The notes beneath the pieces were generated by a model that was not told where the DNA came from, did no database searches, and was given only the letters and a program-made list of their open reading frames with translations. DNA of 64,000 nucleotides from Amoebophrya sp. A120 (lineage: Eukaryota; Protista; Dinoflagellata): the NCBI GenBank assembly GCA_905178155.1, contig CAJINV010000001.1, positions 12,956,635 to 13,020,634 on the forward strand, written 5' to 3'. Shown here in pieces: positions 2,178-61,300 of the stretch; the stretch's first letter is position 1; every line of letters begins with the position of its first letter. The position numbers and the translations under genes were made by a program.

Positions 2178-4794
2178 TTAAGTATTCGTCGCAAAGAGCG
2201 GATCCGGGTGCTCAACGCGACTGAGTGCCTGCTGCAGCTGGTATTTCACATCGGTAAATGCAATGTCATCGTTTTCCAGCATCGGAATCAAGGTGCCAAT
2301 GACGTCGAAACAGGACGACCTACTGTCGTCGCCGAGTTTCACGCGCTGCGACAACAGCTGCTCGACCTGTACCCGCACGGAGGAGAACAAGTAGGAAATG
2401 CAGTTTCGGTCCGCCATTTCCCGCTCTCGCGTTGTCTGCTGTTCCGTGTTCATGGAGTTGCCTGTTGCAGAGGAAGGACCGCTGGTCAGCCCTGGCAATG
2501 GGTCGGTCCATCTGATCTGTTATTACCTGAAAATTGATACCCATCCGCATCCACAACTTTTTGAGTGACAAACAGACGAACTACTTTACGCGACCTGACT
2601 TCATGTTTTGCATGACAAATTGAGTTGGGAGCAGGGTTTAATTTTCAGGGAATATCTGTTCCTGGAAGAACTGCTCGTCCGAGGTTCTCGGCGCCCCGAT
2701 ATTGGTACTACTCCCCGCCAGAGCGGTTCCCCCGGAAAAATCTCCGGCATGGAACTGAGGCGAAATCGCTCCATTTGCTGCAAAAAGAGATGGCGACATT
2801 GCGTTTGCTGAAGATCCGCCGCCGAGGAGGAACGCAGTGCTCGAGCCCGTCGCTGTCCTTTCGTTGCTACTAGTATTATTTGAAGCCCCCGCTGAAGCTG
2901 ATCCCGATCCACTTGTGCCGCCGCCAGACGATGAGCTGCCGTTTTTACCGGAAGAGGAGGATGATGGCACCAGACTGCGGAGCAGCATCTCGAGGTACTG
3001 CTCGGTGAGCATACTGGTGACGGCGAGCAGCAGCTTTTTCGGCAACACGGCCGCAAAGGAGGACACCGCGGTGCGCAGGTACTGCAGCGAAGTCGACAAC
3101 ACGGCCTCCGCCGCGGCGTAGCTGGCGTCCTCGGAGATGGTCCGCATGTACTGCTGCAGGTGCTCGCACTTTTTGCCCAACTCCCTTCGCAGAAACTTGA
3201 GCAGCGTTACCAAGTGTGCCTGCCCCAATTTGCGGAGGGACGGCACCACGTCCACCAGCCAAGCCAGGGGCCGGTTGCTGCCGTGCTCGAAGGGTAGCAC
3301 GGTGAGGCAGAACGCGAAGTACAAGCAGTCGTTGTAGAAAATACCGCCGGAGAAGGGGTCGGCCGTCAGTTTCCCGCGGTGCACGTGCGGCCGGACCAGG
3401 AGAAACAGGGTGACCAGCTGCCGCGTCAGCATCTGCTGGTCTTTGGTCTGCGCAGGATCGCGGATGCCCAGACGGACCGAATTCCGGACTTCCTCCACCA
3501 GCCGCAGCACCGACTGGGATACGGCGCAGGGCGTCCACAGGTACTGTGCCAGGTCCTTGTCCAACCCGGCCATAAGCTTGTCGTTCTCCGACGTCGCCGA
3601 TACCTGCACGGTGGTCATGTCCTGCGACACCATCCAATTCCGCGCCTCTTCCAGAATCTTGGCGCGGGCCTGCACGCCGGTCTTCCGTTCCGCGGCCAGG
3701 CTGGTCAAACTGGCGTCCCGCGTGGTGTCTACGAAACCGAGCGCCGCAGCCTTGTTCTGGAACTCCAGCAGCAATTGGGGCTCGCCTGAGCAGTCGCGCA
3801 AATAGTCCACCAGCAGCGGCCACAGGTGCCGGCCCAGGGCAGCTAAAGCCTCGTTGTGCGCTAAAAAATCGCGGAGGTAGCCGATCATGCTACCGAGTAT
3901 GCCGAGCAGAAACTCCAAGCCCTCCTCCCCGGACTCGAGGCTTTCGTTCTCGTCCACGAAAGACCACACGGTCACCTCGTCGTGGGGCTTGAAAATGCGC
4001 GCCGACAGCTTTTTCCGTCGCGAGTCCACAAACAGCGGCGCCAAGATGTACTTGTGCATGCGCTCCGAGAGCCACTTGGTCTTACTCTCCAGAAGCTCCA
4101 TCGTGCGGAGGCCCTCCCACACCTGCAGATTCTTCTCACTGCGATTGATGCAGATCGTGTTGGGCAAAAAGCTGAAAATGTTCTGGAAATTGCGCTCCAT
4201 CCGCGACGAAAAAAGTACAGCTCGCTGCCGAAACTGCACCTCCAGCTGCCCCGCAATGTCCTGCAGGATTGCTGCGGCTGTGGAAGGATTCATTGATATT
4301 GTGTGTTGACGTTGAGTGTTTCGTTCCCGTTTGCACGATAGGGATAGTGGCAAAATTTTGAGGCACGAAAAAGCAACCTAGTACAGAAGATTTTTTCTTT
4401 AAAATCTGCTCCATGAAGATTCCTTTTGCAAGTGTCCTCTACATCATACTCCAAATCTTCTTCACTTTAAGTTCTACATCTACTTTTAGAACTTACGTTT
4501 TGTGCATGTGACGGTGGTTTCGAGAAGTATTTTCGCCTTCTGGTACTCGGCTGCGCACTGTTCGTACTTTCGCTCCCCGAGATGGGCGTCAAAATGTGCA
4601 AACAGGACCTGGAGCTGTACCACAGACACGAGAGCCTGCAGGTCCTCGCGTACGCCCAGTTCTCGAGGATGCAGCTGCTCCAGCCGGAGACTGATTTCCG
4701 TTTCCAGGTCGGTCAAATCTTCCAGAGTACAGCAAAAGTCGATGCTCCCAGGATCGCACGCCGCATACACGCGCGCTGTCAAGTCGGATTCCAT
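2178..4794 (-). CDS. ZW10: ZW10/Dsl1-like kinetochore and ER-tethering protein, 3 exons (approx. 4794-4497, 4277-2655, 2515-2178)
   Basis: ZW10 C-terminal-like sequence PCAVSQSVLRL...LFLLVRPHVHRGKL...IFYNDCLYFA...VPSLRKLG. A probable GTAAGT...CAG intron at 4496-4278 and the hairpin intron at 2521-2654 join three ORFs in frame. The 3' end is uncertain. Confidence 0.7.
2521..2654 (-). mobile_element. Introner A: inverted-repeat non-canonical intron in the ZW10-like gene
   Basis: Terminal inverted repeat tattacctgaaaatt / aattttcagggaata (14/15), flanked by direct repeat tctgt (2516-2520, 2655-2659). Removing it plus one repeat gives ...FQEQ-IRWTDPLPGLTSGP, joining ORF 2638..4353 to ORF 2178..2498. 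Confidence 0.9.
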
Positions 4795-5671
4795 TGTGAA
4801 AATAAAGAAGTTGTACGTAGTTCTTGTGGGAAAAATATCACGGCTATGAAGTTCAAGTTGGCGCGTTTGCTTTTCGCTTTTCTATGAAAGGACTTGAAAT
4901 TATTGGTGCAAGAATGATGTTGAAGCAGCTCCGACGCGACGTGTTCAACACGCGCGGCCTTCTTCCGTGTGCGACCAACTGCATATGAAACTTCGACCTC
5001 GGACGCTGAGGAGGCGTCGAAGATCGATCGTCCTATTTGAAGCGCTCACGACGAGATAGAAAAAAAATCTGCAGGCTCACTTTTGGTGATGGTGCCATTT
5101 GCAACATCTGCAAATTTGCTGTCCTGTGAAGATTCGATCGACTTACCACGAACGAAGGCACGACAAATGTGAATGACTGAAACTGCAGCCGGCGTCAATC
5201 CTCGATTTGGCCCGACCACAATTGATGAGTGACGGACAAGAAAACTGAAAAGCCGCCCAGCGCGCCAAGCGGCTTCAAGGACAAGGTGTGAGTGTCGTTC
5301 GCTTCTTCGTCTCGTCCATTAAAGCAATTATAGGCCGCTTTTGTTGATGGCGCTTATACATAAGGATGCTCATCTGCTCCATCTGTATCGGCAACTTGCA
5401 GACATACCACCTCTAACTTGTCCGACACAACCAGGGGTCGGTCGTGTAACATCCACATCACAATCCACTTGACTTCTTCAACCTCGTCGGCTGCCAGCAG
5501 CAACATTACACTGGATGCGCTCTTTTTGCGTTTGCCTCGTGGCGAGATCCCGGCACTTCCTTTATTTCGCCACACCAGCCCGCCGGGGGCACGTGTGCCT
5601 GTAGTGCTGCAGTGTGCTTATACGAGGCTCTGAAGATGTTGTAGAGCAGGTTCTACCTCGTCCGCCCGCGG

Positions 5672-6397
5672 CTAAACCACATGGAGGCCCTTGCCGCCGC
5701 CACTTCGGTGGTATTCCTCTATGGCCAAGTCGTGCAATAACTGTCGCTGTTCCATCACCTGCTTGAGTTTCTCGTAGTGGCCCTTGGTCCGGCGGCCGAA
5801 AGGGGGAGGAGGCTCGGAAATCAAAGAAAAAAGCCTAAACTTGTTCACATCATCGCGGCTTTAGCATGCAAGTCGCACTCGAGTAGTGGATCTGCGATCG
5901 TGCAGTATGAGAGACAGCTGCTCTCGACGTTCCAGTAATTATGCGTGGCTCTGTTTTACTAGCTAGTTCATCGTCATCATGTAAGATCGACAGAACATTG
6001 TTATCAACCAATGCTACAAGCAGACTCGAAGAACTCGAAGTTGCTGCGAACAAATAAAGGTCTCGTTCTCGAATTTCGTATGCGGAATCAGGCCACTGAG
6101 CGCCAGAATATCCCGTACTGAATCGGACATGTCCGCTCCTACTCCGAGCCAAAATTTGACGCGCGAAAATCGAAGCCTGATCTCCTTAACATTCGTGAAC
6201 ACCTTTGGGGAGTAACTGCCCAACACCTCGATGTGTTTTCCGTTCCGGGGATCGCGCTGGTTGCAGGCAACAAGCTTGAAGAAGGGCTTGCTTGGTTTCC
6301 CCGCCGTTTGGAAGCGGAGGATCGGAGGCCCCCTTTCCTTGCTGTAGTAGGGCAAAAACATGCGCCGCACGAGAGAAGGTCGAGAAAGCGACAACAT
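5672..6397 (-). CDS. MRPS16: Mitochondrial ribosomal protein bS16, 2 exons (6397-~6083, ~5812-5672)
   Basis: S16 motif PILRFQTAGKPSKPFFKLVACNQRDPRNGKHIEVLGSYSP...RVKFWLGVGADMSDSVRDIL; N-terminal targeting-like peptide; second exon PPPPFGRRTKGHY... Confidence 0.88.
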
Positions 6398-7326: not shown

Positions 7327-10300
7327 TCATCTCGGTTGGCTACCTCGACCGCCCTGCTCCTGATCCTCGATCTTCAAAAACTGGCCGCCACAGACTTCCA
7401 TGAGCCACCTCGGCTCGATGGCCATCACGGTGCGCATGTAAGTTTTGGTCGTCGTCACCAGTTCGGTGAAGAGCACCACCTCGGGTGGCGGTTTGGCCTG
7501 GAACAGGACCGAGGTCGGGTGCACGCGCGCGTGCTGCCGCTCCGTGGCGGTGCAGTACTCGCCCGTCGTCTTAGAGGTGAGCATGGCCGTATGGGTGAAG
7601 TTGGCCTTCAAGAAACACTTCCGCACCACGTCCAGCTCCGCCCCGCAGGAGCCGATTTGCCGCACGTGCAAACTGTGCTCCAACAGCTCCTTCAGCTGTT
7701 CGCGTACCTTGTCCGCGCGCTGCAGCGCAAAAAAGTTCAGTCCGTAGTTGTGGCAAAAGGCCTTCTGGTGGTGGTATGTGGCCGCCTTGCGCCACTTTCG
7801 GTACACGTTTAACAGCGACAAGTGGTCGCCGCTGGGGTGCAGCAGCGTGTCGCGCAACTCCTTCTTTCGCTTGTCGTCGGTGATGTTCAAGTAGAAATGG
7901 GCGTCGATGCTGAGCATCGCCACGATGCTGAGCACCTCGGCAGTGCACTCGAAGGCGACGCTCTCTAGTAGAACCAGGCCGAACAACGGGTGCAGCGGCA
8001 ACCGAGCGAGCTTGTGGCCCAGCTCGGTCAGCTCCAGCTTCTTGTTCAGCGCGCCGATGCGCTTCAAGAAGAAGCAGGCCTTGATCATGTGCTGCTTCGG
8101 CGGCACGTCGAGGAAGGGGAACTTGTCCACCTGCGCAACGCCCAGGCTCTTCAGCAGCAAAAACAGCTGCGAGAACTCGGTGCGCAGAATCTCGGGCGGG
8201 GTTTGCGCCGCGAACTTCTGGAAGCAGGCCTCGGGGTAGATCCGGTAGCACTCACCGGGCGCCTCGCGGCCGGCACGCCCGCTGCGCTGGTCTGCCTGCG
8301 CCTTGCTGGTCTCGACCACTTTCAGGCACTCCACGCCGGTGGTGGGGTGCGCGATTTTGAGCTTCACATAGCCGGAATCTACGACGTAGCGGATGCCGGG
8401 GATCGTGATGGACGTCTCCGCAATGTTGGTCGCGAGCACCACCTTCCGTGCGTTCGGCGGCGCGGGCGTAAACACCGACATCTGCTGATCGAAGGGGAGA
8501 GCGGCGTACAGGGGGCAGATCAGAAGGTCAGGATCGAGGCTTTGGGTTTCCTGTCGGTTATTTTCTGTAACGAGGTTTTCATCATCAAGTTCGTCACTCA
8601 GCGGAGACGATATCATGTCAGCATCTTCCGCACCAGTAGTCTTTTCAGCGTGATCTTCAAGAACATCGGTGTCGGCGTCTTGGGCCGCCACTGGCGCTGC
8701 ATCTTGGTCCAGAATCTTGACTTCATCATTCGCAATATCGGCACTTCTTCGCGCAGCATCGGCTGCAACCTTACCATTCGCATTGTTGTTTTTCGCACTT
8801 CGCGCCCGGGCCAGAAGACGACTATCGATGTCGGTTCTGCCCACCACTGCGTCCTCACGGCGCTCGCCAAGGAATTCTTCTTCACCATTTTCGTTCTTCG
8901 CAGTCCCTGAAGATGCTCCTGCGGCAGCCTCATTCGACGTACTTTGCTCCATCCGCCGCCGCTCCTCCAGTAGTTGGCAGAGGGATTCGATGGCCTCTTG
9001 TCCTGGCAGGAAGCACAGGATGTCGCCGAACGCCGGTTTCGTCTTGTGCAGCTGCAAAATGGCCGTGGCACAAGCCAGCATGTAGTCGTCTGCGGGGGCG
9101 GGGGTGTAGTAAAGCTTCACCGGGTGCTGCCGTCCGTCAATTTTCAGCACCTCGGTTTTGAATTCATCCTGGAAAAACCCCCGGAAAGTCGCGACGTTCA
9201 GCGTTGCGCTCATAACGATCACCTTCAGTGGCGGCACGTTCCGCTGACTAGGCAGCAACTTTGGTCCTCCTGGTGCTCCACCTTCCAAATTCAGATTCAC
9301 CTGGCCCTCTGTAGAAGTACTACTTTCCGTTCTTGTGGCAGCCGCTTTTTGCTTACGAATGCGCAGGGCTTCCTTCACGAGACCCATTAGAATGTCCGTT
9401 TGGACGCTTCGCTCGTGCGCCTCGTCCAGAATTACACAGCTATAGTCCAGAAACGCCCGGTCCTGTACGGCCTCGCGGACAGCCATACCGTCCGTCAGAA
9501 ACAACACCTTGTTATTTGGCGCGCTGTAGTCCTGAAAACGGACGCGGTACCCGACCGCGCCATGGCCAAGAGTGGTGTGCATCTCGTCCGCCACGCGTGC
9601 AGCAACGCTAGTCGCGGCTACCCGCCGCGGCTGCGTGCACAAGATCTTGCGCTCCACCGCGCGCGCTAAGAATTGCGGCACCTGGGTGGTCTTACCGGAC
9701 CCCGTGGCAGACTGCAAAATCAGCACGTCGGTGTTGTTATAGGCTCGCAGAATCTCCTCTCGGTGTCGCACAACGGGTAGCAATCCGTCTGTTTGTAGTT
9801 CATCGGCGTCTTTCTGCAGCTTCGCAGGAGAAGCCTCTGAAGGTATATTTTCGTCCGCAGAATCCTTCGAAGAAGTGGGAGTGACACCCTGCTTTGCTGC
9901 TTTTCTTCTCTTCTTCTTAGTTGTTCTCGTATTTTGCATTAGCATTTCTTCATCCGCCTCCAATGCTGCGAGTGCGACGGGACGGTCCTGGACGGAGGGT
10001 GGGGCTGTTGATGACACACTGCTAATGGTCGTGTCCAATTTTCGTCGCTTTTTCTTCTTTATTATTGTTGATGTTGTTCCCTTTGAACAACTCGTCACTT
10101 CTATTTTTGTTGCAGGGGCAGAAGGAGAACGACAACGAGCGCCCCTAGCAGTACTAGCTGCGGATTCGTCATGGAGGAGCATTTTTATTGTCCCCTCTGT
10201 TGATCCCTGAACAACCCGCTCCCCCACGTCCGAATCTTCGTCAAGATCCTCATAATTCGTGCGCACAGCAGCTTCTACAGGTCGTCGTAATTCTGCCTTT

Positions 10301-10575
10301 TGTTGGCCACCGCCTTTGCTTTTTTTCCGAGTCGCGCGCGCACCAATCCGAGTTGTCAGGTGGTCTGCAACACATGGTCGGTCGTCTTCGATACTTCTGC
10401 CGGAGGACTCGTCGATTGATGCTACAACTGCTGCTCCTTCACTGGTGCTGCTACTTCTTCCACCTGGTGTAGTACTGGCACCGGTCACGGTCTGTCGCTT
10501 CAATGTCTTCGACTTTTTCCTCATTTTGATTTTCTCCTTCATTTCTACACACAACAATTTTTGACACTTCAACAC
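7327..10575 (-). CDS. DHX33: DEAH-box RNA helicase, DHX33/Dhr2-like (first ATG at 10542)
   Basis: Motifs GSGKTT, TQPRRVAA, DEAHER, MSAT, TNIAETSITI, QRSGRAGR, followed by HA2 and OB-fold-like regions. Lys-rich N-terminus. The subfamily call is an inference. Confidence 0.85.
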   Translation of the reverse strand: MLKCQKLLCVEMKEKIKMRKKSKTLKRQTVTGASTTPGGRSSSTSEGAAVVASIDESSGRSIEDDRPCVADHLTTRIGARATRKKSKGGGQQKAELRRPVEAAVRTNYEDLDEDSDVGERVVQGSTEGTIKMLLHDESAASTARGARCRSPSAPATKIEVTSCSKGTTSTIIKKKKRRKLDTTISSVSSTAPPSVQDRPVALAALEADEEMLMQNTRTTKKKRRKAAKQGVTPTSSKDSADENIPSEASPAKLQKDADELQTDGLLPVVRHREEILRAYNNTDVLILQSATGSGKTTQVPQFLARAVERKILCTQPRRVAATSVAARVADEMHTTLGHGAVGYRVRFQDYSAPNNKVLFLTDGMAVREAVQDRAFLDYSCVILDEAHERSVQTDILMGLVKEALRIRKQKAAATRTESSTSTEGQVNLNLEGGAPGGPKLLPSQRNVPPLKVIVMSATLNVATFRGFFQDEFKTEVLKIDGRQHPVKLYYTPAPADDYMLACATAILQLHKTKPAFGDILCFLPGQEAIESLCQLLEERRRMEQSTSNEAAAGASSGTAKNENGEEEFLGERREDAVVGRTDIDSRLLARARSAKNNNANGKVAADAARRSADIANDEVKILDQDAAPVAAQDADTDVLEDHAEKTTGAEDADMISSPLSDELDDENLVTENNRQETQSLDPDLLICPLYAALPFDQQMSVFTPAPPNARKVVLATNIAETSITIPGIRYVVDSGYVKLKIAHPTTGVECLKVVETSKAQADQRSGRAGREAPGECYRIYPEACFQKFAAQTPPEILRTEFSQLFLLLKSLGVAQVDKFPFLDVPPKQHMIKACFFLKRIGALNKKLELTELGHKLARLPLHPLFGLVLLESVAFECTAEVLSIVAMLSIDAHFYLNITDDKRKKELRDTLLHPSGDHLSLLNVYRKWRKAATYHHQKAFCHNYGLNFFALQRADKVREQLKELLEHSLHVRQIGSCGAELDVVRKCFLKANFTHTAMLTSKTTGEYCTATERQHARVHPTSVLFQAKPPPEVVLFTELVTTTKTYMRTVMAIEPRWLMEVCGGQFLKIEDQEQGGRGSQPR

Positions 10576-10659
10576 TTTAGCTTCACCATGGTTTCGATTG
10601 AAGGGTTAGCCGTCGAATCTTTATGAGTGTATTTTGAAACACTAACACACTTCTTGTTG

Positions 10660-11774: not shown

Positions 11775-14700
11775 TTACACAACCGCGCCGTCACTTCGTG
11801 GCGTGTCCTCTGTGTCTCCGACGTGCAATTTGGGCATGCTCGCCAGCACAGCGGAACTTGCGGTGCTGGTCCGCAAGGACGCGGCACTCCGTATGGGGCT
11901 CTCAAACGTTACATTCTCAACTGTTACATGATTTGTCATGCAAAAACACTATCACTATTCACACGACCCAGCCTGCCTTGCATGACAACTTCTCGACGCG
12001 CTACATAGCACTATAATCAGTCCCAAATCTGTAATGCAAAAGGCGCAATCTTCCTCCTGTACTTTTGCCACTCTTGCATTGCAAATTCATGTAACAGCTG
12101 AGAATGTAACGTTTGAGAACGCCATACTCCGACGGCGGAGCCCGGCGTCTCGGGAGGCGCACTGGCCCTCGTGAATGCCGAGATCGTATCAAATGCAAAA
12201 GTGTCTGGGTCTGGAAACTTGTGATGCAAGTCAGGGAAAAATGCGCATACTGTATATGCACTGCCGAGCATGACAAGTTTTTCCGTGGTTCAGAGTTGCG
12301 TACTCCGCATGAGACACTGCGTTTTTGCATGACAGGCAAGAGAAGCCCTTTGCGGCCACGCAATACAGAGCTCAGAGTCATGCCGGACTAGCATGACATA
12401 TCCCGGAATCATCCAGACCCAGACATTTTTACTTTTGATAGATCGCACGCGGGAACTATTTCGCGACACCCGCGCTGGAGGTATTTGCAATGTACGGGCC
12501 GCAGCCCACACACGCATTTCTCGTGTAGCCGCCGCGTGTTCTCATCCCGGAAAGCGCGATCGCAAAACTGGCACCTGAGCGCGAGCAAATGATCGACTGC
12601 GGGCGCGGCGGCGCGCAAGCTGGTCGTGATCGGTCGAGACACGCCGGCAGCGAAGGACTGCAGATCCTGTCCCCTCGTGGCTCGGCTTTCCAACCGGTCT
12701 GCGTTGGAAATATTTGACGAGAAAGCTGAAGGGCTCTGTCGCTGTTTCAGTTCCTCGCGATGAAAAGCGTCGAACTTTTGCCCATCTCTGACCGGGTGGA
12801 TCGCGACGGACTGAATCGCCGCATCGACCTGCGACTTAAGATCGGTGTGGTCGGCTGCGCGCGCCAGAAACTGGCATCGGTCCAGGTGCCGTGGCAATGA
12901 CGACTGGGTAAAGTTGCGGCCACACCCCGGACAGGCGTGCCACGCCTCCATCTTTTTCTGCTGGAGCGTTTGCACCCGCTGCGGATCGAACTCCGCAGGC
13001 AACGCGATCTTGCGACTCCGAAACCGCTCGACGGAGTAGGTCCCGGGGCCTGGCGCGAGGCGGCGGTCCCGGTCGATGATGCCGCGGTCGTGCAGCGTCA
13101 CCGGAATGGTGTAGCAGGGCTGCGTTTTGGTCTGCTTCACCGGGTTCGCGTACGTTCCGGGGCCCGGCGTCTCATTCCGCTCCGCGGCGAGGACGATGTA
13201 GGTTTGTCTGCCCGGTAGGGACGACGGCGTACTCGCGCCCAAACGGCCTCCGCCCGCGGTGTTGAGCTGGTGCGCGACCTGGTGGCCGTCTGTGTCTGTT
13301 CCGTTATTTTCTCCTGGTCCTGCCGAGTCTTTCGTTTTTTCCAGGGAAGTCGCGGCTGTGGAACCGGAATCTTTCTCGACCACCAGGGCTTTTATGTAAT
13401 CTGGAACCGCCGTGGCATTTTGCTCATCCGAGTTTATTTCCGCATCTACTTCTTCGCCGTCACTCCGCGGTGCGCCCTTCGTAATCGAAAAGAGTGGCGC
13501 GCTCGGACCTCGCGTCCGCTTACGGACCGTGCGGGACTCCAATCCAAGCACCGAGTCCACAGGTTCCAGGGAGAGCCAGTAGGTGTCAAAAGCCTCGTCT
13601 GTCGAGGCAGCGTAGAGGCCGCGCAGCTCTTTTTTCGTTACCACGCCGCCTCCGAGTACGCCGTCGTAGCGAAATTCCGAACGGACCGCAGTCCTCGTCC
13701 GCGAAGTAAGTCGTGTTTGCAGCCCCACAGTTTGATCAACCTGTTCACCTAGAAGTTCCTCGCTCTGATCTGTAACGACCACTGCAGTATCCCCGCCAAC
13801 TTCTGGCTCTGGCGAGAGCGCGCCCTCGTGCTGCGGTAGGGTGTCGAACCAAGCTCGCAGCTCAGCTTCGTCCGTATCGCCACCATAGGCCGCTTTGAAC
13901 TCCTCGAATGAATATTCCACCTGCTCTGGGTCCTCCGGATCGTATCTTTTCACAACTACAGCTGGAGCTAATACGGCCTCCTGGCCTGATTGTGCACCTA
14001 CTGCTCCACCTTTTACCGGTAGGCCCTGCCAGAACGCTTCGAAATCTTCCTCGGTTTCGTCTGAGTAAAACTCCCGAAACTGTTCCCGGGTGTACTCGCC
14101 CTCCTCTGGGTCCCCGGGGTCGTACCGCTTTTCGTCTTGTTGCGCGCCGGCGCCGCCGACTGCGGCAGCTGGAGGCCCTGCTCCCTCCATGCCTTCTTCG
14201 AGGACTGCATCTGCGGTGCTCGGTCGATACCAGGCGCCGTCATCCTGCTCTCCCTCCGCAGCCGCTCCTGCAGTTGCTGGCGAAGAACTCGCTCCGGCGA
14301 CGGCTATTGGCAACGACTGGTACCAGGTGTTGAACTGCGCGTCGGTCTCGTCGGGGTAGAATTCCCGAAACTCCGCGCGTGTGTAGGCTGCTTGCTCCGG
14401 GTCCTCCGGGTCCGTGCGCTTTTCCTCTGGTGTGTTAATGCCCGCGCCCCCCTCGTCGGGAGCGAACAAGAAGCTCGATGAAGGATAGCGGGAACAGCAT
14501 CTTTTTGACAACGCTTCTTTGTCACAATACTCATCCTGCAATGCCTGTTTACCATCTCGTCCGACGTTGACCACGAGGACGTCCTGATGACGAGCGAAAC
14601 CACGATCAAAATCTACCGCACCACTGCATTCACTGTTTCTTTCTGGGTAATACAGAAAAGCCGGTGGCAAACCCCTGGGCTGTATGCAATCGACCGCCCG

Positions 14701-15963
14701 AGCCTCGTTATCTGCGAACACCCGGTCGATATTGCGCTTTCCTCGCGCCGGCTGGTCACCGATTTGATGCCTCACACGACCTCCTGCGCGGGCAGCCGAG
14801 TCGGCCTCATCACTACCGACCTGCAGGTGCCCGTGGTCCAAAAAGCCACCCTCGCGCACGTCGCGGCAGCTGGCGGTAGGCATGGCTTTTCGCACGGGGT
14901 ACGCCGACACGTCGAACTGCTGCACGCCCCTGCGGTTCCGATGCTCCGCCGCGGCTTCCTGCCCGGTGTGCTGCAGCGCTATCCCGCCATCATGGTCCTG
15001 AAACCCGCCGTCTTTGTAGTCACGCCGGTACTGCTGCTTTAGCGGCGCCGATTTTGCGACTGTTAGTGGCCGCCCGAGCCGATTTTCGACTACCCCGGGC
15101 CCGCCGGATTCTCCATCTTTGAACTGGTGGAATATCGAGTAGTCGCTGTGCTCCTGGCTGAAGTCCAAGTTCCGCAGTGGGCGGGACTTATCGATGGTAG
15201 TGGCGTGAGGTTTGTGCTTGAACCAGACTTCGGCGTCTGTCTTCGCTTGGTTTTCCTGGTCCCCGATATGAAAGCCATTCCGAAAGTCGGCCGAAAAGTC
15301 CACTGTTTGTTTCTTCCGGGCATCCGGCGCAACAGCGTTGGGGCCGCTATTCGCCGGTGCGCCATCCAGGCGGCGCGTCACGTCCGTGAACTTCAACCTT
15401 TGCGACGTGGATCTCTGCTTCAACTGCTCGGTGGGGTTTGAGGAGACAGCTTCTGGCGTCCTCGGGCGCAGCCGCGCAAGTTCCGGCGGCCGCGGAGCTG
15501 ATGCTGAAGCAAGAGCAGGGTCATGGTTGATTTTTTCTGTCGGCGCCAACAGGTGGTATTCCTTGTGCCAGTCGCTCGTGTCGTTTTTGGGCGGAATCTT
15601 CACTATACCGCCGTAGTCCGGCTCCTCCCGATACCACCAATACGGGTTCGCACCCACAATGTCGGCGCTGTTTCGGTCCCTGGTCTCGTCCAGCACACTG
15701 TAGCGATCCCGCTTCACCTCAGCATTCCGATTGTTGCGGTTGTGATTTTTCTGCAGACTCTGCCCAGCTTCGTCACACCGCCCGTCCGGGTGCGGCTGAA
15801 GGCTGAGAAGATCATAATTCCGTATATTCGGATCACTCTCCTTCTCGTAGCGAAGGTGCTTGTGACGAAAATCGGTGCGGTGAAGGTCGGCCGGCTCGAA
15901 CAACGGGAGGCCCGTGTATTCCGGAACCTCGCTGTCAGGTGGGAGATCGCACTCGACCGTCAT
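11775..15963 (-). CDS. Large protein with 4 acidic 'RYDPEDP..Y..EF..FY..W..LP' repeats, 2 PGPGTY (SHIPPO-type) repeats, a C2HC zinc finger and a TRAF-like zinc finger; 3' end split by two introners
   Basis: ORF 12409..15963. After removing introners B and C the frame continues CREIVPACD-LGIHEGQCASRDAGLRRR-SAASLRTS...DGAVV* (TAA at 11775-11777), which completes the Cys/His finger. Confidence 0.8.
11892..12126 (-). mobile_element. Introner C: inverted-repeat non-canonical intron
   Basis: Terminal inverted repeat tatggggctctcaaacgttacattctcaactgttacatga matches the other end at 37/40. Direct repeat ctccg at 11887-11891 and 12127-12131. Confidence 0.92.
12187..12440 (-). mobile_element. Introner B: inverted-repeat non-canonical intron
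   Basis: Terminal inverted repeat tatcaaatgcaaaagtgtctgggtctgga matches the other end at 26/29. Direct repeat gatcg at 12182-12186 and 12441-12445. Removal restores the zinc finger. Confidence 0.92.
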
Positions 15964-16885
15964 CTTGGCGAGAAAGGCTCAACCGTCAAGAGCGCATGGA
16001 ACGCAGGAAAGATATTACAGTGCCAGGGACAACACGAATACTTCGTGAAAACAACGCCTCCTTCGAATCAGATACAAGCCGCAGGAGCTACTTCTAGCAC
16101 AATGGTGAAGGGGATTCTTCTGTTAATGGTATGGTGTAAATGAAGTTAGTGCTACTTGTGTGCGTCGCAACTGATTGTAAATTACTTATTCACTTTGTTG
16201 ATGCGAGTGCGACGTAAACGAGGCACACGACGTGACCCGTCGCACGCGCAGCTTTCACTGGAAAATGAACGACCGCAAGCCGAATACGAAGTGGAAACAA
16301 GCTTGCAATACATGGATAAGGTAACAGGAAGGTGCAGAAGCACGACGAATGAACTGTGTTGCACGACACGACACATTGTGTAGAACGACTAAAACATCCT
16401 GGCTGAGGGTCCATCGCCTTCTCCTTTCTTTTGTTGCTGGACGAAGAAGAAATGGAAATGGATTCAGCTGCGCTCTACTACACAATGAACGAGGACCGAA
16501 TTACGGTTGAACCGCAGCTACTGTTGCGCATTTTCACTTTTAGACTTTTACAACGACAGGGATAACCTTATTGCATGGCATGAACGATGAAAACACCGGA
16601 AACTCTTAACGAAACTCTTGCCTTGCAGCTGTTTACGAAATTTGCAAGAGCACCAATGGATGAATGGCGAACCTTTATCTCCGAACACAGTCGCTCTTTC
16701 GTACGAAGAGCGAAAGCTACGCCTTTCGGGCATAGTGGCGAGCTAAGCACTACTACTGCGCCTGTGTGTATGAGGAACTTCTTCTGCGAATATTAGGACA
16801 AAGACATATGGAGGACATTCACATGTCGTGTCTGCATGCTAGCACCACTGGCAACAGCGAGCTGAAAGTAGAACCCCGATCGAAT

Positions 16886-17489
16886 TTACTTCAGCACGGT
16901 GACCTTCCTGCGTCCCTTGATTTCCTTCTTCTCGAGGGAAGGAGTCAAAGACTGCGCCAAGCGGTCCGCCTTCGTCTTGTCCTTGACAACCAGAGTGTAC
17001 CTGAAATTTTGATTTTGTTGGATATTTAGATCGATCGAGGACGAGGACGTTTCGATGTTGGCCTCAGTCATGCTACAACTCTCTCAGCAATAGGCGTCGA
17101 AACCGAGTAAAGCAAATCAAACTTCGAGTAAAACTCGTGCGGGTCTGCAAAATTGGTTTAGGTTTCCTTTCGACGAAAAGCACACCTTCCCTCTTAAGCT
17201 ACTCATACCGACACTCTACTGCGTATTTCGCCATGTTGCTCTACACGGCAGTGAAGATGAATATGGAAAAATGCGCCAGCACTGTCTTTAAATTGTCCAA
17301 AAGTTATCTCGAAAGGCAAGGAAAAGCAAAATGTGCATATTCATACAGGTAGCGGGAGCAGCGAATCTTGAACTTGGTGACGACGTTGCCGCTGGACTGC
17401 TCCGGACTCTTCAGGATGATCACCTTCTTGGCATCCTTTCGGCGGGAGTGCTGCAAGAAAGTGCGGATTTCCTTGATTTCCTTCGGCAT
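16886..17489 (-). CDS. RPL38: 60S ribosomal protein eL38, 2 exons (17489-17347, 17000-16886)
   Basis: [18 protein letters not shown]...[10 protein letters not shown]|[18 protein letters not shown]; canonical GTATGA...TTTCAG intron 17346-17001. Confidence 0.96.
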
Positions 17490-17634
17490 CTTTTAGTTTT
17501 GGTTTCCGAAATGATTTGTCCTACTATGCAGAAGAATTCTCCTCTGAAGTTCCCTGTGGTTTTTGTTTCCACGGTGACAAAAATTGGTTGGCGAAAAAAA
17601 TATACATTTATGACAGGGAGGTGTCCGTGGTTTT

Positions 17635-18300
17635 ACCGATCTTCTTTCACAGTGAGCATTTTTCCACGAATCTCATATCAGCCGATCCTTTGTCCGGATG
17701 TGCATTCTGATCTCCAGATATCTAAAGAAGCAGATCTGGCGGAAGATTTAGATTTTCGCCTTTTTTAGAACCCGATCGCTTTCGAATTGATTTTGATCCT
17801 GTTGTGCCTGCACATGATCCGAAATGACTCTCATGAATTTCAATTTCTCATTCTCTTGTCTCTTTTGAATTTGATTTTGATCTCATGTGCCGTCTGCAAT
17901 TTGAATTTCTTTCACCACTGAGACAAGATCGAAGGAGGCTTTGGAGATTCTCCTCCGATGGATCTTTTAAGGAACAAAAATCTTCGCTCGAAATAATACA
18001 TTGCCTAGGGTGCATAACTCAGCGTGTTCTGTACAAAATCTAGCTCAGGCACATTTCATGATGTCAATCACATTGACCTTGACACCATGGAAAAGCACTC
18101 AGGCGTCAGGAGATGCAGGGTGAACAACATCTGGCGCAATCACTTTAGATGCGACAAGTTTTTTTGATCACGAATTCGTCCCCGTCTGTTCACTCTTTCG
18201 ATCCAGGAAATTGCCGCGTCTAGTTCTTGCAAGTCAGATGATGGAGCCTGATCTCCTAGAAAGACGATCGCTACAATCTAAATTGCGACTGCGCGATCTC
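17635..18300. promoter_or_regulatory. GATC-dense island between the eS31 and eL38 genes (upstream of RPL38)
   Basis: About 15 GATC in 660 bp by hand count, 10 of them in the 330 bp nearest RPL38. Confidence 0.5.
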
Positions 18301-18483
18301 TCTCGTTTCCGTCGTTGAAAAAGCCACTCAATCATCATCTATTTTCATCTTCGCCGCACACGGACTCAAAATAGAGAGAAAAACATCAACTGCCAAGCAG
18401 TTGCAGCTCATCTTCCGTAAATTCGACACGCCTTCCGTGCGCCGTCACGACATCGGAGTTCCTCCGAAGTTTAAATTTGGTGT

Positions 18484-19147
18484 CTACTTCTCCTCCTCCT
18501 TGTTGAACATGAAGGTGAGCCCCGACTTCCCGCAGTGGTATCGGTTGTGGTGCATGGCCATGAAGACGCCAGCTCCGGCGATCGGGCTCTCCTTACGTAA
18601 GCGGGTCACCTTTCCATCGCCGCCGACCTAAACCAGAAATTTAGATTTAGATGTCATAGTACTAGCTCTTCATCAACATGCTCGGCTTTTGGAGCTCACA
18701 AGCAAATCACTTTTTGAAACTACTAAATGTGGCATCGTGGACGAATCCGAATCTGTCGTTCCTAGCTAATAGCTTGTCCGTTTATGATGACCCTATGATC
18801 ACAGCAGAAGGTGAAGTACGTATTGTTATTGGTTTTACCTTGTAGTATTTCAGCACTGCGAGCTTGACCTTCTTGTGCTTGTGCTTGATCTTCTTCGGCT
18901 TGGTGTACTGCTTCTTCTTGCGCTTCTTTCCCGCACCGAGCAGGTCGACGTTGACGTCGACAGTGCACTCCTCTTGCAACACATCCCCGACGAAGGCATC
19001 CTCCGGAATGTCCTTACCCGCGTAGGACAAGTGGAGATTTTCCTCAACATCCAACGTGGAAATCAACTCACCCACGGTTGCCTTCTCGTCGATGCAACGC
19101 ACCTGGGAGGTGCCGTCGACACCACGCACAAAAACCTGCATCGGCAT
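18484..19147 (-). CDS. RPS27A: Ubiquitin-like / 40S ribosomal protein eS31 (S27a) fusion, 2 exons (19147-18839, 18627-18484)
   Basis: [31 protein letters not shown]|[39 protein letters not shown]; canonical GT-AG intron 18838-18628; divergent Ubl N-terminus MQVFVRG... Confidence 0.95.
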
Positions 19148-29478: not shown

Positions 29479-30218
29479 TCAAAAATTGGGTTCGACCGAA
29501 CTCACCAACGGCTAGACTTCTGTGAGCGATGTGGCGATAGGACAAGCGCCAACTTCAAATTAGCTCGCTTGCGTACAACCTCCTGTCCTGAGCTTGCGTG
29601 CGTGCAAGCAAGCCACGATGGCATTTTTGACAGCAGGCGACGTGCGCCAGAGACCCAAATTCAGGACATTCTCCGCGCTCCAAAAATAAAAGGTTTATGG
29701 CACGAGAACGGACACACGTGTTGAGCGTGGCTTGACATCGCCACGGAACATCGTTATCACAGACAACAGGAAGGCCCGTCGCATCAACCTTTTCGGGACC
29801 TAAATCTGACTGTGTCCTCTCAGGAGCCAAAAACTCCTGTCTGCTACAACTCTCCACGCCACGACCTCTGTCATGCGTTTTCTTTTTATGGAAAATTGCA
29901 CTTTTTGTTCTCTCGCCCTCCACCGTCTCTCGAGTCAACTCTACACCACGGCAAGAATGAACACCGCGCTGTTAATGGCTGAAATGCTAACCCTAGTAGA
30001 GGGTGACAGCTGCAGTACTCCCTGTACGGCAGGGGTGGCGTTTTTTAGTTCAGGAAAACAAATCACACTTTCTACAGGAGAATCATGGTTGCCCTAAATC
30101 GGCTTCATCTTCGCTTCATCATGCTATTTGTCCGTCGTGTCAGATTGACAAAACCGATTCTCACGTTCGACTGGAACTCGACAAATTATTGCCATCCCAA
30201 ACAGACGCGGAGTTGGAT

Positions 30219-30969
30219 TTACTTCTTCTTGGGCTTCAAGCTCTTCTTGACCTCCTGGTTGACCTTCTTCTTTGCCAGCATCAGCTTGAATCGGTCCAAA
30301 TCGGTCAAGGCGGCCTGTCAAAAGGAGAAAGAAAGAATAAGTACACCGAGAAACATAAAGATGTCAGATTTAGATTTTGCTCTTTTTACGTCGCTCCCGC
30401 TCGCTAACAGAATATTGTGCAATAGTTCATCAGTCACATAATTGCAAACAAATCTGCATCAGCGCAAAGCCAAAAAAGACGTACACAGCATGAGAAAATT
30501 GGAGAAAAACTAAAGAAAGTCAGTTGTATACCTTGGCCTTCTTGGCGGCGATCTTCTTGGCCCAGGCGGACTTCTCCCAGTTGCTGACAGTATCAGATTC
30601 CTTCAAGGCCTTCTTCAGAGCCTTTTCCTTGGCGCCGCGGCCGAGGTTGCTCTTGAAGCCGGTCAGGGAAACCCACTTCAGGGGAATCATCTGCCTCTTC
30701 ACGCCGGTAGTCGGGCCGTCAATCAAAACTTTGTTGATGGAAACCTGTTCAAGTTCAGATAATTTAGCTTTAGAGTTCTTTGACATCACAATTGTATCAT
30801 GTCATGGCAAACAAAAATGTTAAGTACTTCGAAAAAATCTAAATCAGCGACTGGAAAATAAGCGTACCATGTCGACGATGGTAGCCATCTTTCCCTCCAG
30901 AGGTCCGTAGCGGACGAGGACCAGGCGGCCCGGCTCAACGAAGCGCTTGAAGAGAGGTGCGTCAGCCAT
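30219..30969 (-). CDS. RPL14: 60S ribosomal protein eL14, copy 1 (exons 30969-30868, 30744-30532, 30314-30219)
   Basis: [34 protein letters not shown]|[11 protein letters not shown]...[11 protein letters not shown]|[16 protein letters not shown]; two GT-AG introns. Confidence 0.97.
30361..30439 (-). ncRNA. Candidate intronic box C/D snoRNA in RPL14 intron 2 (second copy 33294-33372)
   Basis: Sense ATGT-GAC-TGATGA ... CTGA-CAT: C-like box, D box and short terminal stem over 79 nt. The CTGAC could instead be the branch point. Confidence 0.3.
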
Positions 30970-31119
30970 TTTGTGTGATTTGGTTTTGTTTCCCCGAAAC
31001 TAAAATTCTAAAACGAGAACCCTCGTTTTAAATGTCCCTGTGTGCGGTTTCGAAAAAAGCGACATGACAAAGGAGGGTCTTCTTTTTATTTCACGTGCAG
31101 CAAAAGCAAGTTCTACTTC

Positions 31120-31650
31120 GAGAGATCCTTCAAGATCCCGCTGGAACTCTAAATTTTCTCCAGATGCGGATCCAGACTTTTACCGGAATTTGACGGCTGA
31201 TCTAAATTCTAATTCTTTCTCGGGCAACAGATTTGGTATGCGGATCGATCATCTGGATCTGCTTCTTTATCTTCTGGGGATCAGATTGAGACTTTGTAGA
31301 TCTAAATTTCAGCCTGCACCTTTTCTCAGAACTTTCTACCACTCAAATCGAGATCAGTCATTTTTTTCAAAATCTGATCCTTAAGTAGTACGCAATGGCT
31401 GGTTGAAATTGCAAGAAGATCATCAGGAGCACGTGTCGAGGATCAATTTCTCAGATCTTTAGTTATAGTTGCATATTACGCTTACAACTCCAGTGATCTT
31501 GTCGCCATCGTCAACATTATATAGACAATGGAGACAAGGAGGCGCTGCATGGGATCTTTAAATTTTGCCCTCGTCTCTCGGAATGCAAAAGATAGATCTC
31601 GTATAGCGGAGTTTTCTCAGCATCAAGAATGAAAGTTCAACTTCAGATCA
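31120..31650. promoter_or_regulatory. GATC-dense island upstream of RPL14 copy 1
   Basis: 18 GATC in about 530 bp (hand count). Confidence 0.55.
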
Positions 31651-33097: not shown

Positions 33098-33151
33098 CAG
33101 GTGTAATCGCTGATGGAAACCAATCTATCCCAAACAGACGCGGAGTTGGAT

Positions 33152-33904
33152 TTACTTCTTCTTGGGCTTCAAGCTCTTCTTGACCTCCTGGTTGACCTTC
33201 TTCTTTGCCAGCATCAGCTTGAATCGGTCCAAATCGGTCAAGGCGGCCTGTCAAAAGGAGAAAGAAAGAATAAGTACACCGAGAAACATAAAGATGTCAG
33301 ATTTAGATTTTGCTCTTTTTACGTCGCTCCCGCTCGCTAACAGAATATTGTGCAATAGTTCATCAGTCACATAATTGCAAACAAATCTGCATCAGCGCAA
33401 AGGCAAAAAAGACGTACACAGCATGAGAAAATTGGAGAAAAACTAAAGAAAGTCAGTTGTATACCTTGGCCTTCTTGGCGGCGATCTTCTTGGCCCACGC
33501 GGACTTTTCCCAGTTGCTGACAGTATCAGATTCCTTCAAGGCCTTCTTCAGAGCCTTTTCCTTGGCGCCGCGGCCGAGGTTGCTCTTGAAGCCGGTGAGG
33601 GAAACCCACTTCAGGGGAATCATCTGCCTCTTCACGCCGGTAGTCGGGCCGTCGATCAGGACTTTGTTGATGGAAACCTGTGTAGGTAATTTGGCTTTAG
33701 TCATCACAATTACATCATATCATGGAAGACAAAAAATGTTGATATTCAAATCCACATTTCCAAAAAAAGCTAAATTCACGAGGACTTGAAAAATAAGCGT
33801 ACCATGTCGACAATGGTGGCGATCTTTCCCTCCAGAGGTCCGTAACGGACGAGGACCAGGCGGCCCGGTTCGACGAAGCGCTTGAAGAGAGGTGCGTCAG
33901 CCAT
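33152..33904 (-). CDS. RPL14: 60S ribosomal protein eL14, copy 2 (exons 33904-33803, 33677-33465, 33247-33152)
   Basis: Same exon lengths as copy 1; differences are mostly synonymous, with one M/I change in exon 1. Confidence 0.97.
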
Positions 33905-34049
33905 TTTGTGTGATTTGGTTCTGTTTCCCCGAAACTAAAATTCTAAAACGAGAACCCTCGTTTTAAATGTCCCTGTGTGCGGTTTCGACAAGAGAAATAA
34001 ATAAAGGAGGGGCTTCTTTCACGTCCAGAATAAGCAAGTTCTATGTCGA

Positions 34050-34570
34050 GAGATCCTTCAAGATCCCGCTTGAGCTCTAAATTTTCTCCAGTTGCGGATC
34101 CAGACTTCTATCGGAATTTGACGGCTGATCTAAATTCTTTCTCAGGCAACACTTGTTCGGAATGCGGATCGCTCATCGGCTTCTTTATCTTCTGAGGATC
34201 AGATTGAAATTTTGGAGATCTAAATTTCAGCCTGGAGCATCTCTCAGAACTTTCTGGCACTCGAATCAAGAAGATCAGTCATTTTGTGATTACGTAGTAC
34301 CCAGTGGCAGGAGCTTGAAATTTCAAGAAGATCATGAGGAGCACAATCTGTGGCGGATCAATTCATTGCTCAGATCTTGATCTTTTTCTTTAGTTGCATA
34401 TGCTTACAACTCCAATCCAATAATCATGTCGCCGTTCTCAACCTCAAATAGACAATGAACCTCAAATAGACAATGAAGACAACGAGGGACGGCATGGGAT
34501 CCAAATCTTTAAATTTCGCTCAAGCTCTCGTCTCTGGTGATGCCAAACATCAAAAAGTAAAAGGATCTCT
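34050..34570. promoter_or_regulatory. GATC-dense island upstream of RPL14 copy 2
   Basis: 14 GATC in about 520 bp (hand count). Confidence 0.55.
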
Positions 34571-58358: not shown

Positions 58359-61300
58359 CTACGGTCCGACATGTTCGCCCTGTTCGTCGTGGAGGTGTCC
58401 TTGATCTCGTGCCTGTGCAAGCATGAAGGTACTGTTGATCGAGTTTGGGTTCGCAGTTGCCATGGGAAGGAGGCGCTCCAAATCTTGTTTCGGAAGCCCC
58501 AGTCGCAGTGCCGTGACCGCGGCCGTCACAGACACGATTAGTATCGCGAGCAGAAGTAAACTCGATAGAAACACTACAAAATGTCGAGATAAGCTCCAAA
58601 CCGACGAAGATGTGCATTCGTCTGTGAGTACCGGCTGGGCTGCGGCCAGGTTCAATTGCTGCTTCTCTGCGTCGGACTTGGAGTTCAGCTCGGCAAGCCG
58701 AAACTTCATATCCTCCAAAACCCGCTCTACGTCCTTCACACTGTCATTCAGTTTTCCCAGCGTTTCGCCGTGGCTATCAGCTTCCTTTTGCTCTCTTGCC
58801 TTCTTCTCCTCCTCTTCTTTCCTTTGTTTTTCTTCCTTCTCCGCCTGCTCCTTTTCGTCTTTTGCATTTTGATAGTCGTCCTCCTTTTTTTCTTTTGCAG
58901 CCTTTTCAGCCTCTTGCTTTTTCTCCTTTTCCAACTTCTCCTTCTCCTCTGTGTCTTTTTTCGCCTGCTCCTCTTCGGAATTCGTATTCCCATTGCTTGC
59001 TGCTGGCAATGCTTCTGGCGCATTTTCATTTATCTGTGCTCCCTCCCCTGCGACCTTGGCTGCTGCTTCGCCGCCATCGCTGGCTTCCGCGGCCAACACC
59101 TGCTTTTCGGTTTTCTTCAGGTACTCGTCGCGCGCCTGGGCCTCGATGCGCTCCTTCTCGAATTTCGCGTCGTCCGCCTTGCCCTTTTCCGCGATCTCCT
59201 GCTCCACGACCTCTTGCCGGCGTTTGATATTTTCCTCCGCCTCCTCGGCGGATTCCTTGGCGTCGTGCACTTTCTCCATTTCCTCGGCTCGAATTTCCAC
59301 GTCGCGGTTCACCTTCTCGAGCGCCCTCTCGGAGCTGCGCCGCTGCAAGGCCTGGGCGCGGTCCGCATCGTCCGCCAGCAGCTTGTCCCGCACCTGTCGG
59401 AGCTGATCCGCTTCCGCCCGCAACGCCAGCGCCTGCGCGTCCAGGTCCACACTGCGCGACCTTTCGTGCTCGGCGGCCCGCTCGGCCTCCAGCTTGCTCA
59501 GGTTCTCCTGCGCCTCCGCGTAGGCGCGCGTGCCGCTCGACTGCAATTTGATCTCCGCTTTCAGCTTGTTGATTTCCTGTGTCAAATATGCAATACAATT
59601 TTCCCGTACTACATGTACAAGTTGCATCACAAATTTCAGCAATTTGGAGTAGGTCATGCTAAACGTCGAGGGTCAAAACCAAGTTTTGTCATGCGGAGAC
59701 CGCATTCCGATTTCCACGTGTAGTACGGGAGATTTACTGTGGATATCAAGCTCGCGATGGCCGCGGCGGCGTTCATCTTGCGCTCCGCGTCGGTTTTCTC
59801 GAACTGGTTTTCTACCTCTTCCACCTTCTTTTGCGCGTCCTCCTCCTGCTGTTTCGCCGCGCTCACGAGGTCCTTGTCCTGCTTCAAGATCTTTTCGTTC
59901 TCTTCCGCCTCGTTCGATTTTTCCCGCTTCTCCTCTTCCGCAATCTGCTTTGCCCGCTGGTCCACCTCGGCCGCCTTCGCGGTCACGTCCTCCAGGCCCT
60001 TCTGCACGCCGACGGAGTCGTCCTGTAAATTGTCCAGGTCCACGGCGATCTTGTCCGCGGCTTGCTTTCTCACATCCGACGCGAGGTCGGCCGCCTGCTT
60101 CGCCACCTCCGCCTTCGCGTCCAGCGCCAGACGCTGCCGGTCTTGCGCGGCGTCCATGCTTTCCAGGGACACCTTCTGCCGCGCCATTTCGGCGGCGTGC
60201 CTTGTCTTTTCCTCCTCGGAGTCCTTCGCGAGCTCTTCGCCCATTTTCTGCGATCCCACCACGGCCTTCTGCAAGGTTTTGTCCGCGTCGCGCAGCACTT
60301 CCTGGGCCTTCGCGTTTTCCAGCCGGGCGTCGGCCTTGATGCGCTCGATGGTGGTCAGTGTCTTCTTCACCTGTCCGCGCGCGGTCTCGCGCTCGGTGCG
60401 CAGCCGCTCCAGGGTGTTCTCCGTGATCGACCCCATGCCAGGGTGGTCCAGGGCCTTCAGCTTCTCCTGCTGCAGCTTGGCGCGCGCGAGCTCCAGATCC
60501 AGTTCGCCCTGCACGTTGTCGGTTTGCCTTTTCAGTTTTTTCTTCGCCGTCTCATCGAGGTTTTTCTATCCAGGAAAAGACACCCATCCCCATCCATTTT
60601 CTGCATGACAAATAGTGGAATTTATGCACGTTTTGCATGACAAATTGGATGGGGATGGGTGTTTTTTCCTGGATATTTTCATCGTGTCTTCCATCAACTG
60701 CTTCATCTTCGCCACCTCGTTTTCGTATTCCGTCGCCAGCTGCTTCTCGAGAGCCAGGCTCTCCGCGCGCGCGGCGGCGCTGGGCTCCGCGGCATTCACC
60801 TGCAGGAACGCGGACTGTTCTCCGTCAAGGTCAAGTGAGGCTCGCGCGCCCGGCACTTCGTCGCAAAACGGGAGAGAGCTGGCGGACACGACGTTTGATG
60901 GGGCATGCTGGAGCTCGTGCTCATGCGTTTTCTTTTCCCGCCGAAGCAGGCGGCGTTTCTTCACTCGGTGGACATGCACTTCCAGCGCACTTGTTGCAGC
61001 TGCACCTTCTTCAGCAGCCGGCTTGTCGCCATCGGCAGCAGCCGGCCCTTCATTAGATTCTTCTTTCGATTCAGTTTCTGCCACTGCAGGCTCGTCCTCT
61101 TTTTTCTCTTCGCTCGCCGTCGTGTTTTCTTCTTTCTTCTCGGCGTCATCGGAAGCAGCAGAGGATTCCTCGTCTTTCTTTTCAGCATCTTCTACTCCTA
61201 CTTCAGCGGGCTTTTCATCTTCTGACTTTTTTTCCTCATCGCCTTTTTTGTCTTCGGAGTCTGATTCGTCTTTTTTTTCCTCGTCATCACCACTGCTTGA

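Follow-up and report, generated by a model that had tools for sequence, protein, structure and literature searches.

A shared interior motif in unalignable introner families of Amoebophrya sp. A120 as a probable binding array for one transposing protein

A stretch of 64,000 nt from the genome of the dinoflagellate Amoebophrya sp. A120 (contig CAJINV010000001.1, positions 12,956,635 to 13,020,634 of the forward strand; hereafter the window) contains five introners, designated A to E. Inside these elements a short motif, in full GCA(T>A)(G>C>T)ACA(A>G)(A>G)TTT and called here the box, is repeated in both orientations, and the same box recurs in several hundred related elements that fall into about nine otherwise unalignable lineages. 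Its copies are regularly spaced, show no preference for the sense strand, and are spared from changes in the lineages that multiply. We give a probability of roughly 0.68 to the interpretation that the array of boxes is a double-stranded DNA binding site for one trans-acting protein which transposes all these families.

Five introners in the window

The limits of the elements were set by a scan of the window for inverted ends and target duplications. All five have TAT..ATA termini and a 5-bp target duplication, which in D agrees in four of the five letters, and together they account for 891 bases or 1.4% of the window:

Element A, 2521-2654, 134 nt: belongs to the family of E, from which it has diverged; ends TAT..ATA; 5 bp duplicated (2516-2520 and 2655-2659)
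Element C, 11892-12126, 235 nt: group 5; duplication CTCCG; close to the 3' end of a minus-strand zinc-finger gene
Element B, 12187-12440, 254 nt: duplication GATCG; assigned to group 0, which is repeated more than any other family
Element D, 59587-59745, 159 nt: group 10; duplication TCAAA/TCAAG; splits a reading frame of the minus strand
Element E, 60567-60675, 109 nt: group 7; duplication TTTTC; located in the reading frame that D also splits

Element A splits a minus-strand ZW10-like gene, and its excision yields a frame of 686 codons. A contig from a run of RNA type (the run type was guessed) fuses position 2514 to 2654, so that 139 nt, corresponding to A and one copy of the duplication, are absent; the same run also skips two GT-AG introns, while a DNA contig retains the element. 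When D and E are excised with 5 extra nt each, a frame of 1213 codons results, and other cuts give at most 677 codons. Removal from the mRNA with non-canonical ends is thus indicated for A by the RNA-type contig and for D and E by the reading frame alone. GT-AG ends were not obtained in any register for any of the five elements. For B and C, which are located close to a gene's 3' end, the reading-frame test does not decide on splicing. The elements are repeated in the genome: 8,056 contigs of a DNA run fall mostly on B and C, and relatives of B, C, D and E were found among the metagenome loci described below. The terminal inverted repeat consists of TAT, about seven variable bases and AAA, with A at positions 11-13 in 78-95% of cases; in C the run of A comes 2 bases later. 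The fold of E is a single long hairpin. A candidate sixth element at 57092-57275 was rejected, as it has no box and its repeats are weak.

The box and its copies in the window

A preliminary description of the window, made from its letters only, had listed copies of the motif and reported that its 9-mer is confined to the elements. Every copy named there is present, and all seven GCATGACAA matches of the window lie inside A-E (0.56 expected; none of 100 shuffles reached 7). Matches to TTTTGCATGACAAA with up to two mismatches also number seven, against 0.89 expected. The looser core GCAT[GCT]ACA has 16 matches, 12 inside the elements and 4 outside. The general motif is the full form given at the start, in short GCA(T/A)NACA(A/G)(A/G), and the upstream TTTT turned out to be typical of some families only. 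Both orientations do occur within elements, but the number of copies, put at 2-4 per element, ranges from 2 to about 7 if degenerate copies are included:

2563-2572, plus strand: degenerate box in A, within 2559-2572 (2 mismatches), aligned with the first box of E
2610-2619, plus strand: box in A
11932-11941, minus strand: box 1 of C
11980-11989, plus strand: box 2 of C
12028-12037, minus strand: box 3 of C, GCATTACA variant
12076-12085, plus strand: box 4 of C, degenerate
12218-12227, minus strand: box 1 of B, GCATCACA variant
12268-12277, plus strand: box 2 of B
12307-12316, plus strand: box 3 of B, degenerate
12327-12336, plus strand: box 4 of B
12360-12369, plus strand: box 5 of B, degenerate
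12391-12400, plus strand: box 6 of B
59590-59599, plus strand: box-like sequence in the left terminus of D, right after TAT, score 12.1
59624-59633, plus strand: box in D, GCATCACA variant
59685-59694, minus strand: box in D
60603-60612, plus strand: box 1 of E
60635-60644, plus strand: box 2 of E, 32 bp past box 1 in the same direction

At box 6 of B, other family members have A at 12399 (variant depth 10,018 of 10,125), which restores GCATGACAA. The two RNA-supported GT-AG introns of the window and a third skipped stretch contain no box. We take the reverse motif to resemble the animal Sox-Oct element and the apicomplexan TGCATGCA site; TGCATGCA itself has no match inside the elements.

The 18-nt identity between A and E had been put forward as evidence for a conserved site. 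This did not survive, since A and E align end to end (masked alignment, Z about 5) and their identity is explained by ancestry because they are one family. Once the motif and 15 bases at the ends are masked, no two of B, C, D and E can be aligned with each other (Z at most 1). The whole-length alignment that would reduce the motif to recent shared ancestry is limited to the pair A/E.

The box joins unalignable families in a larger sample

For a larger sample, a metagenome collection was scanned with 21 bases of the B arm which are free of the motif. This yielded 135 loci from one assembly, 647 kb after merging, in which 408 elements were called without use of the motif; a detection control gave 14 false calls versus 415. 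An exact 5-bp duplication was found in 346 of the 408 elements (the filter required 4 of 5), and 342 duplications comprised 278 different ones. A scan blind to the termini gave 313 inverted-repeat pairs flanked by an exact 5-bp duplication, of which 289 had TAT..ATA ends. Being short, non-coding, present in many copies and equipped with inverted repeats and a target duplication, the elements are MITE-like (MITE, miniature inverted-repeat transposable element). Elements of the A120 type are TAT..ATA miniature DNA transposons which sit in genes as introns, in either orientation.

Families were defined by clustering of the inner inverted repeat; single-linkage and BLAST clustering were dropped, because they chained or over-split families. 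After removal of nine elements in groups 12-19, six of which carried the core, and of two counted twice (locus L006 repeats L051), 397 elements in 12 groups remained. The bait family is over-represented among them (186), and the remaining 211 come from the flanks. The same loci (L001-L135) also contain 57 end pairs without a 4-of-5 duplication, some with apparent duplications of 4 to 8 bp. In a viral collection the B arm had no match, and two double-motif matches were discarded as unrelated, AT-rich phage DNA.

The exact core GCAT[G/C/T]ACA is present away from the ends in 382 of the 397 elements, and outside the bait family 210 of 211 elements have a match to a matrix trained on these elements. 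GCATGACAA was counted 473 times in 104,788 nt inside elements and 19 times in 308,518 nt located more than 330 nt from any end, corresponding to 4.51 and 0.062 per kb. This difference of about 70-fold, together with the box-free canonical introns of the window, argues against the possibility that the motif is equally frequent elsewhere. The interior 8-mer most widely shared by the elements is GCATGACA. Depending on the group, an element has 1.8-6.1 motif copies on average, compared to 0.2-0.4 in shuffles. In addition, 92 matches in 426 kb were located in decayed AT-rich stretches without callable ends. Masking of boxes and ends left the family consensuses in about ten unalignable lineages; one box map is common to group 11 and groups 4/6, which were therefore merged, giving about nine.

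Boxes are arranged at a period close to 16 bp

Centre-to-centre distances between boxes cluster at 16-18, 31-34 and 46-49 bp, and the period that fits best is close to 16.3. Plain 10.5-bp phasing gave no signal (0.05, versus 0.40 near 16.5). A pair of boxes in the same direction 31-33 bp apart was found in 8 of 10 representatives, while the null mean was 1.6 and none of 20,000 simulations reached this number; of the 39 gaps between neighbours, 31 deviate by no more than 2 bp from a multiple of 16.3 (null 11). The outermost internal box is mostly 36-52 bp from the element end. A short motif repeated inside the ends in either orientation is also the pattern of subterminal transposase-binding repeats. 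In five of the 12 groups the best near-end match begins right after TAT or nearly ties with such a match, and a likeness between terminus and box was seen in groups 0, 1, 4 and 10 and weakly in group 11.

The core is spared on multiplying lineages

Alleles were counted in subfamilies with at least eight copies, where the core columns were set from each subfamily's own consensus, which causes a small bias. Singleton alleles amounted to 0.353 per column in the box core and 0.519 in the other interior (0.68x), doubletons to 0.046 and 0.184 (0.25x), and alleles in three or more copies to 0.024 and 0.224 (0.11x). The CpG context does not account for this depletion. Trees of 17 subfamilies gave a similar picture, where core changes reached 0.46x on the terminal branches and 0.24x on the internal ones (odds ratio 1.9, p 8e-9). 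That the depletion rises with the number of inheriting copies is as expected if a damaged box blocks multiplication. A comparison of shared insertions, meant for changes after insertion, yielded only duplicated loci and one short pair.

An alternative which keeps part of these observations is that a host protein binds the motif on the DNA and marks non-canonical introns for co-transcriptional removal or for chromatin handling. Transposition would then select the motif only because unspliced insertions in genes are lethal. A motif independent of orientation and spaced as a DNA site is expected here just as for a transposition site. The mild depletion of private changes, the decayed copies that keep their cores better than their interior, and the persistence of the motif in the decayed stretches mentioned above would also fit, and U1 small nuclear RNA (snRNA) was undetected in strains A25 and A120 according to Farhat et al. 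2021 (PMC7789003). However, the steepening of the depletion with the copies that inherit a change points to blocked copying and not to survival. Moreover, A was precisely removed with one intact box, and the lack of boxes in the two RNA-supported GT-AG introns argues against a general intron mark. On balance, we regard a host mark as rather unlikely.

It is also conceivable that the motif is a functionless leftover of a single ancestral repeat array behind all families. A and E have it by common descent, interiors are related in some groups, and a single origin would account for the shared spacing as well. But if lineages that multiply are compared inside subfamilies, changes are 4- to 9-fold rarer in the core than in the neighbouring sequence, a depletion for which CpG context offers no explanation, and the sequence between boxes is unalignable across lineages. 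Common descent of the families may be true without being the whole account of the motif, and a mere leftover is very unlikely.

The motif probably acts as a DNA site and not as an RNA site

The host strand was taken from a codon model, which assigned 254 of 392 elements, consistently within loci. Relative to it, 357 box copies are sense and 431 antisense, so there is no sense enrichment. In group 3, in which 124 of 129 copies point in one direction, 14 insertions are sense and 18 antisense. Among 161 elements in long open frames, strong boxes are antisense-only in 31, sense-only in 19, in both orientations in 109 and lacking in two; 24 of the 31 antisense-only elements would shift the frame if retained, and two antisense-only elements are located in a gene for the largest subunit of RNA polymerase. 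Element A, too, has its box antisense to the host gene and is nevertheless spliced, as judged from the RNA-type contig.

Pairing at the RNA level was considered as well. In eight spacing classes, inverted neighbouring boxes showed no covariation (largest excess 63 of 159 versus 56.3 +- 2.9), and RNA pairing between inverted boxes was rejected because their variable letters do not covary. The near-palindromic boxes of E do pair within its hairpin, which is specific to this family. Sense-strand arms had 210 G-U versus 181 A-C (p 0.16) in a test of the hairpin model.

The T-N-A-C core of the motif resembles the branch-point consensus yUnAy. An RNA signal, either a branch-point-like sequence or a site for an snRNA or a protein on the pre-mRNA, would be compatible with the variable position of the motif, and in many elements a copy in sense orientation is found at a distance of 40-50 nt from the 3' end. 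Against this stand the excess of antisense copies, the antisense-only elements in open frames, the splicing of A and the missing covariation; the copies are also not placed as branch sites would be, which keep a fixed distance to the 3' splice site and are confined to the sense strand. An RNA signal has therefore little probability in our view. As far as this may be read from sequence, these results favour a conserved site on double-stranded DNA over one that pairs as single-stranded RNA. The preference for a double-stranded site in the preliminary description is thereby strengthened by the strand, covariation, 31-33 bp spacing and selection tests on several hundred elements, while its lead example, the pair A/E, had to be given up.

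A proposed mechanism and the points against it

By analogy with known MITEs, a subterminal DNA-binding array for the transposition machinery is likely and is the best reading of the data. From the anatomy of the elements, the independence of orientation, the spacing and the selection pattern described above we infer a protein that binds the array, its probable type and a role for the hairpin. Several protomers of an integrase-clan DDE transposase, or of its helper protein, would load on the box array. Judged from the ends and the duplication, the transposase could be of the Ginger type or IS3EU-like. Its protomers would sit on one face of the DNA, three helical turns (31-33 bp) apart, and bring the TAT-N7-AAA ends together for insertion with a 5-bp stagger. 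The family-specific arm would then probably act in the transcript as an RNA hairpin, by means of which the host could excise the element together with one duplication. As such an inverted repeat needs to match only its own partner, it could diverge freely.

Several observations weigh against this interpretation. The spacing classes were picked post hoc after inspection of the data, and deep common ancestry of the lineages could contribute to the shared spacing: weak masked alignments connect groups 1/10, long 2/8 and 4/6, and the box map which group 11 has in common with groups 4/6 suggests that lineages may share deep ancestry. Taken over all groups, terminus and box resemble each other weakly (the score was reached in 56 of 2000 permutations, and 59 of 792 ends match), and in groups 2, 3, 5, 6 and 8 the likeness is absent. 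The strand assignment is not based on RNA. Even private core changes stay below background, at 0.68x in general and 0.77x in the largest subfamilies, and decayed copies have a core/interior ratio of 0.3-0.4, leaving room for selection after insertion; both effects may also stem from sparse sampling and alignment anchoring. Finally, the 408 elements contain no long frames, no transposase or integrase family was detected among 162 reading frames in 0.65 Mb, and Farhat et al. report no transposase in A120 (PMC7789003).

The box could also be required for copying and yet be read by a host architectural protein, which bends DNA or acts on chromatin and serves several transposases with their own inverted repeats. 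The families here have different inner inverted repeats, as is usual where each family is served by a transposase of its own, and the terminus-box likeness is absent in half of the groups; but the TAT-N7-AAA ends and the 5-bp stagger common to all groups point to one integrase-clan DDE enzyme, so that this version, although not separable on sequence alone from a single transposing protein, is highly improbable.

Further observations on introners and their loci

In the metagenome loci, a 764-bp TAT..ATA element with a 4-of-5 duplication is nested in a group 1 introner (L059:18697-19460). It has subterminal runs of CAGATGA(CA) repeats, mostly inward-facing, whose ATGACA core is common to the box, and it may represent a sister lineage of other specificity; the three frames tested had no Pfam match. 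The RNA polymerase largest-subunit gene mentioned above (L045:4312-15859) is split by ten introners from four groups. At L009:2627-6082 a C-5 cytosine DNA methylase is spread across two neighbouring frames, and at L035 a perfect inverted repeat of at least 1871 bp (3277-5147 and 15208-17078) surrounds genes, which may be an inverted duplication, a large element or a misassembly.

In the window, the B arm (12407-12440) was found in 88 raw RNA reads of another sample with the same species label, where the interior is different and the motif is kept about 14 nt before 12407. The stretch 5814-6080 is skipped by an RNA-type contig; it is non-GT-AG in the printed register, has no box and no TAT..ATA call, and possibly belongs to another class of non-canonical introns. 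A gene at 16997-18930 is highly covered in RNA-type runs and has GT-AG introns at 17001-17346 and 18628-18838; loose ends near 18837 may mark a trans-splice or paralogues. The intronless gene at 7327-10605 encodes a spliceosomal DEAH helicase of the DHX16/Prp2 type, is expressed in RNA-type runs and has its best named relative in Amoebophrya sp. A25 (73% identity). A tandem duplication at 30194-35288 has an AT-rich unit of about 2.9 kb, with 79% identity overall, an identical stretch of 300 nt and no Pfam match in seven frames. Throughout the window (1-64000) the long reading frames are all on the minus strand, like the co-oriented gene blocks described for Amoebophrya. An Rfam scan of the window gave no match.

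Comparison with known systems

The introners of A120 were described as non-canonical introns with inverted repeats and direct repeats of 3-5 nt, the inverted repeat being TAT, seven variable bases and AAA (Farhat et al. 2021, PMC7789003). The elements analyzed here have the same end pattern and repeats, with a direct repeat of 5 bp at the borders of all five window elements, and their lengths match those of the A120 families in Gozashti et al. 2025 (106-322 bp; PMC12130899). Farhat et al. counted 1954 A120 families by inverted repeats and argued against a general mobilisation by transposase. The preliminary description knew of no earlier account of the motif. No description was found in the literature searched, nor in the text and supplement text of these two papers: an internal shared motif or a spacing rule is absent from the searched text and supplement text of PMC7789003, and the motif string has no match in 12 of the 14 supplement files of PMC12130899.

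In the latter paper A120 family 38 has integrase-like frames and is listed as 'Ginger, 5-bp TSD, TA/TA termini' (TSD, target-site duplication), while among 40 of the 58 A120 dataset rows most other families are left as unknown terminal inverted repeat elements. Family 38 is similar to our elements in its 5-bp duplication and TA/TA termini, but it is 810 bp long with Copia/Gypsy-like frames. The TA..TA termini are also those of IS3EU/GingerRoot elements, which differ by their 6-bp duplications (PMC10045372, PMC6839031). Ginger2 has a 4-5-bp duplication as found here (given in PMC10045372), but Ginger, Ginger2 and TDD have TG..CA instead of TAT..ATA termini (PMC10045372, PMC6839031). The combination of ends and duplication thus fits neither IS3EU/GingerRoot nor Ginger.

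The closest parallel for the arrays is the MITE Emigrant, in which Lemi1 proteins bind the end and the subterminal repeats and the arrangement of the repeats matters (PMC1636448). Those repeats are short and occur in both orientations, as the boxes do, and they partly resemble the terminal repeat, a likeness that is weak overall for the boxes; the subterminal repeats of CACTA, hAT and Sleeping Beauty, as cited there, are of the same kind. Emigrant's repeats belong to one family with its own transposase and lie near the ends, and their binding was demonstrated, while here it is predicted. A further difference is that one motif extends across about nine lineages with different inverted repeats, occupies the interior at steps of about 16 bp, and is found in elements that are introns.

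Implications

New in this analysis is a single motif that joins otherwise unalignable families of already known introner elements. It bears on two questions, how tens of thousands of Amoebophrya introners move and how they are removed without GT-AG ends. One motif and one spacing rule across unalignable families suggest a single mobile system with one trans-acting protein. The motif may serve as a defined DNA bait for this mobilising protein, as a route to the autonomous partner and as a marker for intron annotation. The data further suggest a division of labour, in which the conserved array would serve copying, and the arm, free to vary as long as it matches itself, would serve splicing. It is tempting to speculate, although we consider it doubtful, that one DNA-reading protein, perhaps a domesticated transposase, both copies the elements and flags them to be cut exactly out of the transcript. 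If this were true, introns would be defined by a DNA-bound factor instead of RNA splice signals, in a lineage where U1 snRNA was not found.

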